From NCBI GenBank assembly GCA_026683435.1, contig GCA_026683435.1_4866.1: a stretch of DNA of 64,000 nucleotides, one strand, 5' to 3'. Source of the stretch: a phage. The notes beneath the pieces are model-generated. The model saw only the letters and a list, made by a program, of their open reading frames with translations, was not told the origin of the DNA and made no database searches. Positions 39,019 to 44,392 of the stretch are shown one piece after another. Every line of letters begins with the position of its first letter. Positions within the stretch are counted from its first letter, which is position 1. Made by a program: the position numbers and the translations under genes.

Positions 39019-39411
39019 ATGGCGATATCTATTAAAGACGTCAGAAACCGCGTCCAGATAGTCGAAGCTAACATGGCGACAGGCCCCCGTATCGACGCGC
39101 AAGTGGCCTCTAAAGCCCATAATGCGGCAGACCGATTTGGGGGTTGGACGAAAGCACAGCTAGATTGCGGCGGGACATGTTCTTGGACGTGCTCTAACGG
39201 TTGCTCGCATGGCTGTTCGAGCTGTTCAGGAAGCTGTTCTGCTTCTTGTATCGGTAGCTGTTCTTCGACGTGTGGCGGTAACTGTTCTGGTTGCTCTGGT
39301 TGTTCTGGTGGTTGCAGTAGTAGCTGTACCGGTAACTGCTCAGGTGGTTGCGGGGGGGCTTGTTCTTCCAATTGTTCCGGAGCCTGCTCCGGTGGCTGTT
39401 CAGGTCGCTAA
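39019..39411 (+). CDS. Cys/Ser/Gly-rich small protein A (putative rSAM substrate/precursor, 130 aa)
   Basis: SD AAGGAAG; N-terminal 45 aa non-repetitive (MAISIKDVRNRVQIVEANMA...), then core DCGGTCSWTCS... with 21 Cys in C-x2-4-C spacing. Confidence 0.6.
   Translation: MAISIKDVRNRVQIVEANMATGPRIDAQVASKAHNAADRFGGWTKAQLDCGGTCSWTCSNGCSHGCSSCSGSCSASCIGSCSSTCGGNCSGCSGCSGGCSSSCTGNCSGGCGGACSSNCSGACSGGCSGR
39166..39408 (+). repeat. low-complexity codon repeat (TGC-TCN-GGN) encoding the Cys-rich core of A
   Basis: Imperfect 9-15 nt repeats; they generate long ORFs in several frames and on the opposite strand. Confidence 0.6.
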
Positions 39412-39421
39412 GGGGGATTAA

Positions 39422-39826
39422 ATGGCAATTGGATTAAAAGAACTGAATAACCGATTAAACACGATCGATGCAAACGCTTTAAAGAACACCACGAATGTGC
39501 AAAACTACATTCGCAATAAAGCTACGAATAACGCCGACTTGTTCGCAGGTCAAGGTCGTTCGCACTACGACTGTGGTGGTACGTGTTCTTTTAGCTGCTC
39601 AAGTTGCTCTGGCGGCTGCACAGGGTCTGCGACAGGTGGTTGTGGGTCGACTTGTTCCGCAAACTGTGTATCAGGCTGTAGCAGCAGCTGCACGGGCTGT
39701 AGCTCTTCGTGCTCTGGTGGTTGTAGCGGCACGTGCACAGGCAGCTGTTCTGGGGGTTGTGGTAAATCCTGCTCCGCAAACTGCTCAGGTGCGTGCTCTG
39801 GTGGTTGTTCAGGTCCTAACTCCTAA
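39422..39826 (+). CDS. Cys/Ser/Gly-rich small protein B (paralogue of A, 134 aa)
   Basis: SD AAGGGGGA; leader MAIGLKELNNRLNTIDANAL parallels A; junction SHYDCGGTCSFSCS; 20 Cys. Confidence 0.6.
   Translation: MAIGLKELNNRLNTIDANALKNTTNVQNYIRNKATNNADLFAGQGRSHYDCGGTCSFSCSSCSGGCTGSATGGCGSTCSANCVSGCSSSCTGCSSSCSGGCSGTCTGSCSGGCGKSCSANCSGACSGGCSGPNS
39583..39817 (+). repeat. low-complexity codon repeat encoding the Cys-rich core of B
   Basis: Same TGC/AGC/GGN repeat character as in A. Confidence 0.6.
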
Positions 39827-39841
39827 CTGACGGAGGCTTAT

Positions 39842-41895: not shown

Positions 41896-43216
41896 TAGCG
41901 AACAGCAAATCCAGTACACACCACGCACGTATCAGGTTGTGACTAACCTGTCATGTAACCTGGACTGCGAATACTGCTACGAGCGTAAATATCCGCGTAA
42001 CAACAAAGTAGCAGACGTGATTGATTTTATCCACGCTTGTTTCGAGCGTGATAAAGATATCCCGAACGTTGAAGTCATCATCGATATCATCGGTGGTGAG
42101 CCGTTCATGCAGCCTAAACTTCTTTTGGCGGCCTTTGAAACCGCAGAGAAGTTATGCGCAGAACACAATCGCCCGTATATGTTCAGTATCTCCACGAACG
42201 GTACGCTTCTGGACCGTCCGCTGAACAAAGAAATTATCGAGCGCTGGAAAGACAAACTGTCTATTGGGGTCTCCATCGATGGTTTACCTGAAGTCCATGA
42301 CAAATATCGTATCTTTACCACGACGCGTGAAGGGTCGTACGAAGCTGCGGTACGCGGTTACAATTATCTGAAGAGTGTTGGCATCGCTGAGCTGGGCGTA
42401 AAGGCGACGTTTACGATCGATACATTGCCGCACTATGCCGCCAGCATGAAATCGTTAATTGACATGTCCGGCGGTGGTACCATCTCTGGTAACGTAACGT
42501 ACGAAGATATCCTGCCGCGCCATATGGCGTTGGATATCGCGAACCAGATGATGGACGTGATGGACTACTGGATTGAGAAGGGTCTGCACACCAACCCGCG
42601 TAACACGATTACACACATCATCCCGGATGGCCTGAACTTTATGGCAACTTGGGACCCGGATTGGCGTGACAAACTCTTACATGACGACTCTGTTCGTCTC
42701 GACCCAGAACGCCTGAAACCGTACTGCGGTACGTTGACGCACATGACCTGTCTCGGCTTTGATCGCAAGATTTACGGTTGTAACCGTTTCATGTCCACGG
42801 TAACTTCCCGCTCTGCTGTAGCAGAACTGGTCGGTCGTGAGTTTGTGAGCCTGGACGGTGGTAAGCTGTTAGAAGAGATTCAAACGCAGTACACCAACTA
42901 CCCAGAAACCTGTTTAGGGTGTCCGATGAAACACAGCTGCGGTAGCTGCGCAGCAGCATCGTACGAAAACGGTGAAGGTACACTGGAAGACCGTAAAGCG
43001 TATCATGCCGAGCGTCGTCAGTGTGGTTGGACTACTGCGAAGCTGATGGCGGCGGAATATTGGTATCAGAAAACTGGTACGACCCGCGCATCAGATTTGC
43101 ATGATAAATCCATGTGCTATTGTTCACGTTGTGTACGCCAACGTGCTGAAGCAGAAAAATTACAAAACGGAGCCCAGAATGAAGTCAATACTGATTCACA
43201 ATTTTACGAAGCGTAA
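41888..43216 (+). CDS. radical SAM enzyme 2 with SPASM-type C-terminal Cys cluster (peptide-maturase-like)
   Basis: CNLDCEYCY (CxxxCxxC); GGEPF; ISTNG; YRIFTTTREGSYEA; C-terminal YCGTLTHMTCLGF...YGCNRF and CLGCPMKHSCGSCAAAS (CxxCx5CxxC). Start overlaps rSAM1 stop by 8 nt. Confidence 0.7.
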   Translation: MSNSEQQIQYTPRTYQVVTNLSCNLDCEYCYERKYPRNNKVADVIDFIHACFERDKDIPNVEVIIDIIGGEPFMQPKLLLAAFETAEKLCAEHNRPYMFSISTNGTLLDRPLNKEIIERWKDKLSIGVSIDGLPEVHDKYRIFTTTREGSYEAAVRGYNYLKSVGIAELGVKATFTIDTLPHYAASMKSLIDMSGGGTISGNVTYEDILPRHMALDIANQMMDVMDYWIEKGLHTNPRNTITHIIPDGLNFMATWDPDWRDKLLHDDSVRLDPERLKPYCGTLTHMTCLGFDRKIYGCNRFMSTVTSRSAVAELVGREFVSLDGGKLLEEIQTQYTNYPETCLGCPMKHSCGSCAAASYENGEGTLEDRKAYHAERRQCGWTTAKLMAAEYWYQKTGTTRASDLHDKSMCYCSRCVRQRAEAEKLQNGAQNEVNTDSQFYEA

Positions 43217-43745
43217 ACTGCACTTGGTCGATCGCTTCCTGCGCAAAAGCAAGCTGTACAATGTGCACGCAATTGTGGCAGGGGAAGACTTCACTGATGA
43301 AATCCAAAGCCTGTTGATTAAATACGGGCTGAACGTGATGATCCCGGTCTACTGCGTTGAGAAAGGACACGAGTCTGTCGCGGAAATCGAAAAGCGCAAT
43401 CCTGGCTTTGAGAAGCGACTGCTCGCATACCCACGCCACAAAATCGAACTGCTACGTCATTCCATCGATGAAGCCAGTCCTGAAAGTTTAGTGGCTTTGG
43501 GCTTGTCTTTCCCGCGGATGCGTATTCGTAACTTACGCTCCAATAATCCGGTCGACGCGTATTACACAGAGCGTCAAATCTTCGAAGAACACCTGCTCCC
43601 GCAGTTGGAAGAAGAAGAGCAACACAACATTTCTGTGTTGTGGGCCGGTAACCTCGATCAGGACTTCCAGATGCTGGACTTCGGTTTGTTGTTAGAACTT
43701 GGCCTGATTGAGGAGGACGAATGTCTGTTACTGACAAAAGCTTAA
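43179..43745 (+). CDS. hypothetical protein (~188 aa)
   Basis: ORF track 43101..43745; ATG at 43179 with SD GGAG; overlaps the end of rSAM2. Confidence 0.45.
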   Translation: MKSILIHNFTKRKLHLVDRFLRKSKLYNVHAIVAGEDFTDEIQSLLIKYGLNVMIPVYCVEKGHESVAEIEKRNPGFEKRLLAYPRHKIELLRHSIDEASPESLVALGLSFPRMRIRNLRSNNPVDAYYTERQIFEEHLLPQLEEEEQHNISVLWAGNLDQDFQMLDFGLLLELGLIEEDECLLLTKA

Positions 43746-44392
43746 CGAACGAAGAGATCCGCGCCCGTTATTTCCAGCGTGATTTGCCGATTGATCGTCA
43801 CGGTAATTTCATGGAACGAATCGGTGCGCAGGATCAGGGTCGTACCGGATTTTGTGCATTACTCCATTACCATCTCATCGAAGGGATGTCTGATAAAGAA
43901 GCCCTGGCACGTATGAAGCTGTATGAGATGTCGGAGATTGAAGCTAACTTCACATTGAAACGCACGAAAGAGTTTATTGCTAATGTGCTGGAGATTGACC
44001 TCGACGAAATTCGCGGGAATCTGAAATCCACCGCACGTTACATTTACGAAGACGTGCAGAAGATGCTGTTGGAACTTGACCACCGCTACGAAGATGAGCG
44101 TCATGGTTATATCGAGTTTGAAGGTAGCCACTTTCAAGCCGATGAATCGTCGCGCGCCATCCTCGGTCAATACATTCAGGCAGATACCGCACCAGAATAC
44201 TGGCTCGATACGCTGAATACTAAGCACAGTCCGTTTACAGTAGACCAATGTAAAGCGTTGTTGGGCGCTATTGTTGCACGCGACCAGGTGTTGCACTCAG
44301 CAATGGCAGATAACAAACGCCAAATCCGTGAGTTAGCTGAAAAGCGCGATTACACCGGTTTAAAAACATTGTCCGAATCACTCGGCATGTAA
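43721..44392 (+). CDS. hypothetical protein (223 aa)
   Basis: SD GAGGAGG; last gene before the bidirectional terminator. Confidence 0.55.
   Translation: MSVTDKSLTNEEIRARYFQRDLPIDRHGNFMERIGAQDQGRTGFCALLHYHLIEGMSDKEALARMKLYEMSEIEANFTLKRTKEFIANVLEIDLDEIRGNLKSTARYIYEDVQKMLLELDHRYEDERHGYIEFEGSHFQADESSRAILGQYIQADTAPEYWLDTLNTKHSPFTVDQCKALLGAIVARDQVLHSAMADNKRQIRELAEKRDYTGLKTLSESLGM

Follow-up and report, generated by a model that had tools for sequence, protein, structure and literature searches.

Radical S-adenosylmethionine (SAM) enzymes of the SPASM type are known as maturases of small secreted peptides and of a few enzyme subunits. One of them, QhpD, makes several intraprotein Cys thioethers in QhpC, a small and poorly structured protein that remains in quinohemoprotein amine dehydrogenase as a structural subunit (gamma). 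To our knowledge, no role of radical SAM enzymes in the building of virus particles has been described in the searchable literature. Here we analyse a stretch of 64,000 nucleotides of phage DNA (contig GCA_026683435.1_4866.1 of GenBank assembly GCA_026683435.1; the whole stretch is called the window), and in it a module of eight genes that encodes three small paralogous proteins (A, B and C), two of which carry long arrays of regularly spaced cysteines, a 295-aa partner protein, a small and a big radical SAM enzyme and two further proteins (Table 1). The same cassette recurs in the tail modules of unrelated phages and prophages, where the Cys array is the C-terminus of tail fibres. We consider it probable that this is a phage tail-fibre accessory cassette, in which the two radical SAM enzymes and the partner would process the Cys arrays of fibre-tip proteins before the tail is assembled.

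Several described systems share features with this locus, and each of them also differs from it: (i) In the CXXX-repeat system (TIGR04115 with TIGR04114/PF27846), as here, a SPASM radical SAM enzyme adjoins a Gly/Ser/Thr-rich protein made of Cys-Xaa-Xaa-Xaa repeats, and members that pass the family cutoff are also found on viral contigs and in the tail module of a P2-like prophage. In the window, the genes of A and B are found upstream of that of the big enzyme, on the same strand and at a distance of about 1-2 kb, which is the neighbourhood expected of TIGR04115. However, the clade of the window scores below the cutoff and adds a second, smaller radical SAM enzyme and a partner with a predicted new fold. 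(ii) PapB, the SPASM enzyme that modifies PapA (freyrasin), introduces numerous Cys thioether rings of short range into a repeated C-x3-x motif. The acceptors of PapA, however, follow the pattern C-x3-D, whereas the arrays of the window have almost no Asp or Glu; in addition, PapA is a short peptide and not a fibre domain, and PapB works alone. (iii) For a substrate that is not a secreted peptide but a structural protein, the QhpD/QhpC pair offers the best precedent. Nevertheless, TIGR03906 gives the big enzyme 55.5 bits against a cutoff of 453, the cross-links in QhpC run to Asp and Glu, and the pair has no phage context. (iv) CteB, which acts on SCIFF, and the sactipeptide synthases AlbA and SkfB also form thioethers by means of auxiliary clusters; but CteB and AlbA carry an N-terminal recognition element (RRE) for ribosomally synthesised peptides with post-translational modifications (RiPPs), which the window enzyme lacks, and its SCIFF score is 53.9 bits against a cutoff of 425. 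(v) The His-Xaa-Ser system (HxsA, HxsB, HxsC and HxsD) combines a target with a short-period repeat, a tandem pair of radical SAM enzymes that differ in size and a protein without known function, HxsB being matched by the big enzyme and HxsC by the small one. These matches, however, reach 75 bits against 370 and 45 against 268, the repeat residue is a different one, and there is no link with tail fibres.

A preliminary description of this DNA, made from the letters alone, knew of no equivalent in a virulent phage. The system is not confined to this phage: the module is conserved across the clade of phage SPN3US and widespread on viral contigs, and in-silico catalogues already list such an enzyme together with its repeat target (TIGR04114/TIGR04115, PF27846), in entries whose curators' descriptions may mention phages. 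Searches of 7.7 million PMC papers and 0.34 million preprints yielded no experimental or comparative description of the system, and nothing that links tail fibres to radical SAM chemistry.

The connection with tails comes from the contexts in which the cassette occurs. In unrelated phages and prophages, a set of four genes (array protein, partner and the two radical SAM enzymes) recurs right after baseplate, J or Dit genes, and it is also found behind a T4 gp13-like gene; there, the array is the C-terminus of tail fibres of 250-570 aa. In the prophage of Deferribacter abyssi (L002), for instance, the 302-aa protein carries H-x-H-D-x-R-Y-Y-T-E fibre repeats and ends in ...NADQLGGQAGSYYRCSDCSWTCSSSC and an array of 29 Cys, sharing with the proteins of the window the motif C..CSWTC at the entry of the array; its 250-aa partner and its small radical SAM enzyme are homologous to those of the window (2e-9 and 2e-14, respectively). 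Among other array-bearing proteins there are matches to PHROG tail-fibre families, and their sequences show recognisable fibre motifs. A and B align, N-terminal helix included, to the C-terminal ~130 residues of longer fibre-like proteins, and their PHROG 6085 domain is found as the C-terminus of proteins that start with a tail-collar fibre segment or match PHROG tail-fibre families, in neighbourhoods with J, Dit or baseplate wedge genes. They are best read as a putative fibre tip encoded by separate genes. In one viral contig (L113), moreover, the small and the big enzyme form a single protein of 686 aa with CX3CX2C motifs at residues 23 and 299, and such a fusion is a classic sign of two enzymes that work together. 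A search of related genomes for the module returned the same cassette throughout the SPN3US/phiEaH2/CR5/Kwan clade as well as in the unrelated phages, and distant homologs of the big enzyme (32-39% identity) were always accompanied by the same neighbours.

A scan of IMG/VR found at least 487 stretches with relatives of the big enzyme, and the counts given here are taken from the best 80 loci of these. The link between Cys-rich protein and enzyme that had been proposed for this single locus was borne out, since a Gly/Ser/Thr-rich, Cys-containing array open reading frame (ORF) is adjacent in 75 of the 80 loci. The arrays are on the strand of the radical SAM gene in 100 of 105 cases and upstream of it in 92 of 105, with a median gap of about 1 kb. 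Two tiers can be told apart. Tier 1 (23 loci, with at least 30% identity to the window enzyme) has the partner in all 23 loci, the second radical SAM enzyme in 22 and the array in 21. Tier 2 (24-28% identity) has a single radical SAM enzyme and array proteins that are very large (as much as 500 aa, with 105 Cys); the second enzyme and the 220-295-aa partner are missing. The TIGR04115 cutoff (350 bits) is passed by the tier-2 enzymes (428-497 bits) and by an enzyme located in the baseplate/tail module of a P2-like prophage (L013, 372 bits), and it is missed by the enzymes of the window (125.6 bits), of L002 (154.9 bits) and of L107 (143.7 bits). Tier-2 neighbourhoods are tail modules too, as in L131, where Dit and a minor tail protein lie upstream. 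Since enzymes that pass TIGR04115 sit in tail modules, the catalogued CXXX family would be largely associated with phage tails, and the window enzyme appears to belong to a separate sister clade with extra components.

The array domain is not confined to phages. A scan of genome contigs was swamped by generic SPASM enzymes, its N-terminal pattern being broad, and the informative loci were L013, L018, L021, L024 and L080. Among them are bacterial loci with small precursors beside a PapB-like radical SAM enzyme and with no tail genes (81 aa in L024, 87 aa in L080 and 53-60 aa in L021), which indicates that the array domain is used outside phage tails as well. Some bacterial array proteins have signal peptides (P0177 and P0179), one of which is Tat-like (RRQFFK).

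In the window, A and B share one layout: a predicted N-terminal helix (residues 5-19), the motif K-A-x-N-A-x-x-F/L-G/A-G (NAxxFGG, of the fibre type, in A), the entry motif Y/L-D-C-G-G-T-C-S-W/F-T/S-C (CGGTCSWTC in A) and then a Cys array of period 4, closing with C-S-G-P/R. Across the clade, successive cysteines are separated by 3 residues in 236 of 278 cases (85%) and by 2 residues in 38, and the unit that repeats reads C-[S 66%, G 16%, T 11%]-[G 58%, S 21%]-[G/S/T]. The number of cysteines hardly varies, A having 21 in every genome examined and B between 20 and 23. In each paralog 20 Cys columns are invariant and the intervening residues swap among S, T, G, A and N, Cys being the sole invariant array residue in the clade alignment. 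Essentially no Asp or Glu occurs at repeat positions +1 to +3. Each array of 81-84 residues contains one Lys or Arg, so trypsin would release almost no array peptides; the N-terminal part of A yields the tryptic peptides VQIVEANMATGPR, IDAQVASK and FGGWTK. The preliminary description had listed three Cys-rich paralogs, and of these A and B have strict arrays, whereas C is paralogous but has none. C keeps the helix and a C-x-G-x-C-S-W entry motif, and since it is conserved in this short form (68-72 aa) in all five genomes compared, it is not a decaying copy.

These five genomes are the window, CR5, Kwan, phiEaH2 and Phobos, whose radical SAM enzymes are 63-77% identical, and they were compared because TGY/AGY/GGN repeats stay open in several frames. 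Of the six frames, the Cys frame alone lacks stops throughout the five genomes, in A as well as in B. The differences at codon positions 1, 2 and 3 number 431, 326 and 814 in A and 427, 343 and 852 in B, so that the third position changes about twice as often as the others. PHROG 6085 also matches in this frame (1e-40). Judged by these sequence comparisons, the Cys-rich frame is the coding frame of both genes. The 64-kb window holds no array ORFs besides A and B, and the arrays are therefore not an accident of composition. The three paralogs score below the TIGR04114 cutoff of 20 bits (A 18.0, B 17.1 and C 13.7), and the homologous array of L003, which also has PF27846 among its precomputed hits, reaches it with 20.7. 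BLASTP searches with the arrays as query were uninformative owing to composition correction. The exact protein A is missing from a collection of 5.8 billion proteins, in which the best match is 49% identical; for the adjacent radical SAM enzyme there are records on about 600 contigs.

Both enzymes are confirmed as radical SAM proteins by PF04055. The big one has the motif CNLDCEYC (CX3CX2C at C23/C27/C30), invariant in 30 homologs, together with CLGCPMKHSCGSC. Across 30 sequences, with identities down to 26%, eight further cysteines (C280, C288, C298, C342, C345, C351, C354 and C379) never or hardly ever change, and they are predicted to be the SPASM complement for two auxiliary clusters. The SPASM-like region of the preliminary description is thus upheld by its cysteines but not by Pfam, as PF13186 is unreported for the big enzyme even at E <= 1 and appears in the precomputed hits of one distant homolog only (P0114). 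Since the SAM motif begins at residue 23, the enzyme has no N-terminal RRE domain. Its best NCBIfam match is TIGR04115, the CXXX-repeat target peptide maturase (125.6 bits against 350), followed by the ranthipeptide maturase PapB (NF047865, 113.6 bits against 340), which matches residues 22-357, nearly the full length and through the SPASM region. About 60 further peptide-maturase families match at lower scores; all the strong matches are peptide maturases. The nearest solved structure by sequence is that of the SCIFF thioether synthase CteB (5wgg, 3e-10), and then comes anSME. The presumption that the big enzyme is of the RiPP peptide-maturase type is supported by these matches and by the eight cysteines.

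The small enzyme has CNLDCSFC (CX3CX2C at C28/C32/C35, invariant in 15 homologs) as well as GGEP and TNG motifs. In the family alignment C245 and C274 alone are invariant among its C-terminal cysteines, a third one varying in position, and for this reason it does not appear to be a full SPASM protein; its C-terminal Cys domain would be truncated. Roles in nucleotide or cofactor metabolism (viperin, MoaA, QueE and NrdG) were considered and rejected, the matches being of 40-45 bits against cutoffs of 130-285 and confined to the generic N-terminal half-barrel. Sequence relatives of both radical SAM enzymes include anSME.

For the partner, which belongs to the core of the cassette, neither Pfam nor NCBIfam gives a matching family. 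Its AlphaFold2 model is confident (predicted local distance difference test (pLDDT) 91.9, predicted template modelling score (pTM) 0.88) and has a predicted new fold, unlike known folds; a profile search among 1.84 billion representative proteins found just 49 clusters. Its identification as an RRE, a protease or a known fibre chaperone was rejected. Of the two proteins encoded downstream, the DUF4376 protein also weakly matches a PHROG 'tail protein' family, and a DUF4376 protein comes after the radical SAM pair in L006 too. For the companion proteins a check for RiPP-recognition or protease folds had been suggested; Pfam, NCBIfam and PHROGs detect no peptidase, transporter/exporter or RRE domain in the eight ORFs.

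Table 1. Features of the module and its surroundings in the window, and loci elsewhere that carry the cassette.
Feature	Position	Strand	Match, score or content
gp167 homolog, coiled-coil fibre-like tail protein	37715..38953	+	PHROG 2163 virion structural protein, 7e-109
Terminator-like hairpin, then T-run	38961..38997	+	-24.1 kcal/mol, z = -4.8
Gene A, Cys-array protein, 130 aa, 21 Cys	39019..39411	+	PHROG 6085, 5e-40
Gene B, Cys-array paralog, 134 aa, 20 Cys	39422..39826	+	PHROG 6085, 3e-41
Gene C, paralog without array, 68 aa, 4 Cys	39842..40048	+	PHROG 6085, 3e-25
Partner protein, gp165 homolog, 295 aa, core cassette member	40071..40958	+	AlphaFold2 model
Small radical SAM enzyme, gp164 homolog, 304 aa	40981..41895	+	PF04055, 58.8 bits (threshold 29.5)
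Big radical SAM enzyme, gp163 homolog, 442 aa	41888..43216	+	PF04055, 55.6 bits (threshold 29.5)
188-aa protein, gp162 homolog, confined to this phage clade	43179..43745	+	PHROG 7988
223-aa DUF4376 protein, gp161 homolog, accessory	43721..44392	+	PF14301, 36.9 bits (cutoff 25)
Bidirectional terminator hairpin closing the block	44410..44433	both	10-bp G+C-rich stem, 7 G-C pairs
L002, Deferribacter abyssi prophage			GpJ-like host-specificity protein, three unknowns, 302-aa array fibre, partner, small radical SAM, big radical SAM
L003/L004, 213-kb contig			568-aa fibre ending ...LGGQPPDFYTCGGSCSWSC..., 30 Cys, PF27846 in precomputed hits; then partner and two radical SAMs
L005, 140-kb contig			Array protein; N-terminus passes PF12571 'phage tail-collar fibre protein', 24.2 bits (cutoff 23)
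L006, 104-kb contig			110-aa array protein, partner, both radical SAMs, DUF4376 protein
L108, viral contig			Central tail fibre J (1e-167), then array-tipped fibre and cassette
L114, viral contig			Baseplate wedge subunit (1e-75), then array-tipped fibre and cassette
L113, viral contig	6137-8197		Fibre with 'PTAPTA...QIATTKFV' motif ending in array; fused radical SAMs (at this position)

The window belongs to an SPN3US-like jumbo phage. Over positions 39000-44450 it shares 98-99% identity with Salmonella phage SPN3US and near relatives of that phage, all of them jumbo myoviruses (genus Seoulvirus); this region corresponds to SPN3US_0166 through SPN3US_0161. In the ORF map a co-directional tail block begins at 24568, with three very large ORFs (homologs of gp170, gp169 and gp168) and lastly the gp167 homolog, which also matches tail-fibre PHROGs, weakly; the module forms the 3' end of this block. 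The eight plus-strand ORFs described earlier are all present at the positions given for them, and both terminators proposed as bounds of the module are real; for the upstream hairpin, none of 200 shuffled sequences was equally stable. Each gene start of the module has a purine-rich ribosome-binding site (AAGGAAG before gene A), and the genes are tightly packed, with overlaps of 8 nt between the two radical SAM genes, 38 nt between the big one and the gene of the 188-aa protein, and 25 nt between the latter and that of the 223-aa protein. No Rfam family reached its gathering score anywhere in the window (1-64000).

The published annotation of these phages obscures the arrays. In the SPN3US record A and C are unannotated and SPN3US_0166 is B in a wrong frame (equivalent to window 39495-39830), and the annotated start of SPN3US_0164 (equivalent to window 41101) falls downstream of CX3CX2C, which removes the SAM-cluster motif. 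The CR5, Kwan and Phobos records have minus-strand calls over the arrays, and one SPFM2 record names the radical SAM genes albA and moaA. Published proteomics places the upstream neighbours in the tail: gp167 has 880 peptide-spectrum matches (PSMs) in wild-type SPN3US virions and about 0 in tailless particles, and both it and gp168-170 are classed as Tail (PMC10052503 Table S2). The big radical SAM enzyme (gp163) has 0 PSMs in wild-type virions, gp161, gp162 and gp163 are trace 'Non-virion' proteins in head preparations, and gp164, gp165 and gp166 are absent from the virion lists (PMC10052503 Tables S2, S3). These data fit cytoplasmic maturation enzymes that are expressed but not packaged. Because A and C are unannotated and B is mis-framed, all three lie outside the search database, and the published SPN3US proteomics is silent on them. 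There is here a systematic blind spot, since array genes that gene callers miss or put in a wrong frame become invisible to proteomics.

The genes and their frame, the class of the enzymes and the non-virion status of gp161-163 are shown, as are the conserved cassette with its place in tail modules and the fusions to fibres, and on this basis we propose the following pathway. A and B would be free-standing versions of a C-terminal tail-fibre domain (helix, NAxxLGG and ~20 C-[S/T]-G-x repeats) and, like the fused fibres elsewhere, would be translated with an unstructured Cys-Ser/Thr-Gly tail. The partner, the entry motif or both would recruit the two radical SAM enzymes; because the big enzyme has no RRE, it is probably the partner that holds or presents the substrate. 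The enzymes, cytoplasmic and outside the virion, would process the array in the infected cell, prior to tail assembly. Serial short-range thioethers from each Cys would then give a rigid, covalently stapled rod that is independent of disulfides, and the modified product would join the periphery of the tail, where gp167-170 are candidate docking partners. That the chemistry consists of Cys-derived thioether cross-links is quite possible, although we stop short of calling it probable: Cys is the sole invariant residue of the arrays, and the nearest characterised relatives of the big enzyme (PapB, CteB and QhpD) make Cys thioethers.

Several points weigh against this proposal. The enzymes are far under every curated family cutoff (sactipeptide, ranthipeptide, SCIFF, QhpD and TIGR04115 included), so their chemistry cannot be transferred by homology, and membership in the sactipeptide, ranthipeptide, SCIFF or QhpC-type clusters, whose architecture the preliminary description had cited, is not supported by these cutoffs. 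The arrays are without the Asp/Glu acceptors of PapB and QhpD, and it is for this reason that we hold the thioethers as tentative and the overall picture as no firmer than probable. The small enzyme has just two invariant auxiliary cysteines. AlphaFold2, run on A with an alignment of six sequences, gave a pLDDT of 41, N-terminal helices only and no usable model of the array. Unlike the fused versions elsewhere, the array proteins of SPN3US are encoded by small genes of their own, and they could be located differently; a terminator-like hairpin also stands between the gp167 homolog and gene A. A C-terminal array could, besides, be removed after assembly, like an intramolecular chaperone. Finally, that the arrays are the substrate, that thioethers are formed, that the partner has the role given to it and that the products enter SPN3US virions are steps that we infer.

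Other explanations have to be weighed against the same evidence. The arrays may be modified otherwise than by thioethers, through formylglycine, epimerisation, C-C cross-links or a metal or Fe-S ladder in a trimeric fibre. The presence of anSME among the relatives of both enzymes, the lack of the acidic acceptors of ranthipeptide and QhpC cross-links and the failure to pass any curated cutoff are all compatible with this, and other fibres do contain metal ladders, the His-Fe sites of T4 gp37 being an example. Yet Cys is the one residue that the arrays never change, PapB, CteB/SCIFF and QhpD all make Cys thioethers, and for formylglycine the recognition motif of anSME (C/S-x-P/A-x-R) is absent from the arrays; we regard another chemistry as unlikely. 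Somewhat less likely still is that the modified arrays are assembly factors, either as a cross-linked template or chaperone for the trimerisation of gp167-170 or as a fused domain that is cleaved off after assembly. Fibres and spikes commonly have a C-terminal domain that aids assembly and is later removed, paralog C retains the docking parts without an array, gp161-163 are non-virion proteins and gp165 is absent from the virion lists. However, the near-constant number of cysteines (always 21 in A) and the up to 105 found in relatives suggest a structural product, the module encodes no protease, and the SAM spent on a domain to be discarded would be costly.

The preliminary description had also left room for a product that is secreted or antagonistic. 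In a true RiPP system, A, B and C would be precursors, the Cys-rich cores of which would be freed at lysis as peptides for antagonism, signalling or anti-defence. In favour of this, the enzymes belong to the maturase type, the SPN3US arrays are small stand-alone genes, the bacterial relatives with small precursors (L024, L080 and L021) have no tail genes, and the signal peptides of P0177 and P0179 point the same way. We nevertheless find this very improbable, since the eight ORFs include no peptidase, transporter or RRE domain, the cassette lies within tail modules in every phage background examined, the array is elsewhere a covalent part of fibres of 250-570 aa, and the stretch of A and B that would serve as 'leader' corresponds by homology to a segment inside fibres. 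Of the products envisaged at the outset it is accordingly the virion-associated one that is favoured, the array being the C-terminus of tail fibres elsewhere. It is also conceivable that the adjacency is a coincidence, the radical SAM enzymes acting on a small molecule, a nucleic acid or a host target and the arrays being fibre domains stabilised by disulfides or metals. The weak and generic similarity of the small enzyme to the viperin, MoaA, QueE and NrdG families and the albA and moaA labels of the SPFM2 record could be cited for it, but an association in 75 of 80 loci, with conserved order and strand and in phages that otherwise share nothing, makes it hardly credible. The strong matches of the big enzyme are, moreover, all peptide maturases, and relatives that pass TIGR04115 also adjoin arrays. 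The fibre fusions and the conserved position in tail modules argue strongly against both a free RiPP and a coincidence.

Some variations on the cassette were noted along with the census. The tier-2 arrays include proteins of 480 aa with 92 Cys and of 500 aa with 105 Cys (L120, 4756-6198; L154, 2932-4434; L131, 4878-6578; proteins P0168-P0180). They share an uncharacterised N-terminal domain of ~110 aa (LKxxVxxEMxRR...YGGxxYDY...), and in L131 a domain of ~170 aa without Cys follows the array. NCBIfam gave no match for the small ORFs between array and radical SAM gene in tier-2 loci, nor for the very large arrays, in the latter case probably through low-complexity filtering. In L013 (5923-7098), proteins of 391 and 96 aa stand between the array protein and the radical SAM enzyme, replacing the 295-aa partner. 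In L104, a 225-kb relative, a second copy of the small radical SAM gene (3543-4454) is located between array genes A and B (3126-4914), and in L106 (5571-6989) the small enzyme has 472 aa, with a partial internal duplication of its own domain; perhaps the small enzyme is paired with particular array paralogs. In L006 two S-AdoMet lyase genes (PF23780; 3269-5537) lie ~3 kb upstream of the cassette, and a genome with both SAM-destroying and SAM-consuming functions implies that these are controlled in time or space. In the window itself, a 163-aa ORF beyond the module (45145-45636, plus strand) starts with MKRLFIVFAIINLLAGC, a lipoprotein-type signal with a lipobox Cys, and is flanked by the head-protein gene gp160 (minus strand) and by peptidase and lysis-like genes.

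That tail fibres can carry a C-terminal domain cross-linked by dedicated radical SAM enzymes of the phage, widely in myo- and siphophages and in SPN3US among them, is a reading to which we give slightly less than even odds. It is directly testable, as SPN3US is genetically tractable, with amber-mutant genetics and deep proteomics. If the proposal is true, the arrays would include the first virion structural protein matured by radical SAM enzymes, and the stapled rod would be part of the host-recognition apparatus, especially in phages that infect anaerobes and gut bacteria. Reduction does not attack thioethers, and we speculate that they suit the anaerobic or gut habitats of many carriers, where disulfides would fail. 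Cross-linked fibre tips would thus be a disulfide-free way to stabilise a host-binding organelle, useful in reducing, anaerobic habitats, and a design element for engineered phages and protein materials. They would also give a function to the orphan CXXX-repeat family and to four 'hypothetical' genes of a jumbo-phage clade that is considered for therapy.

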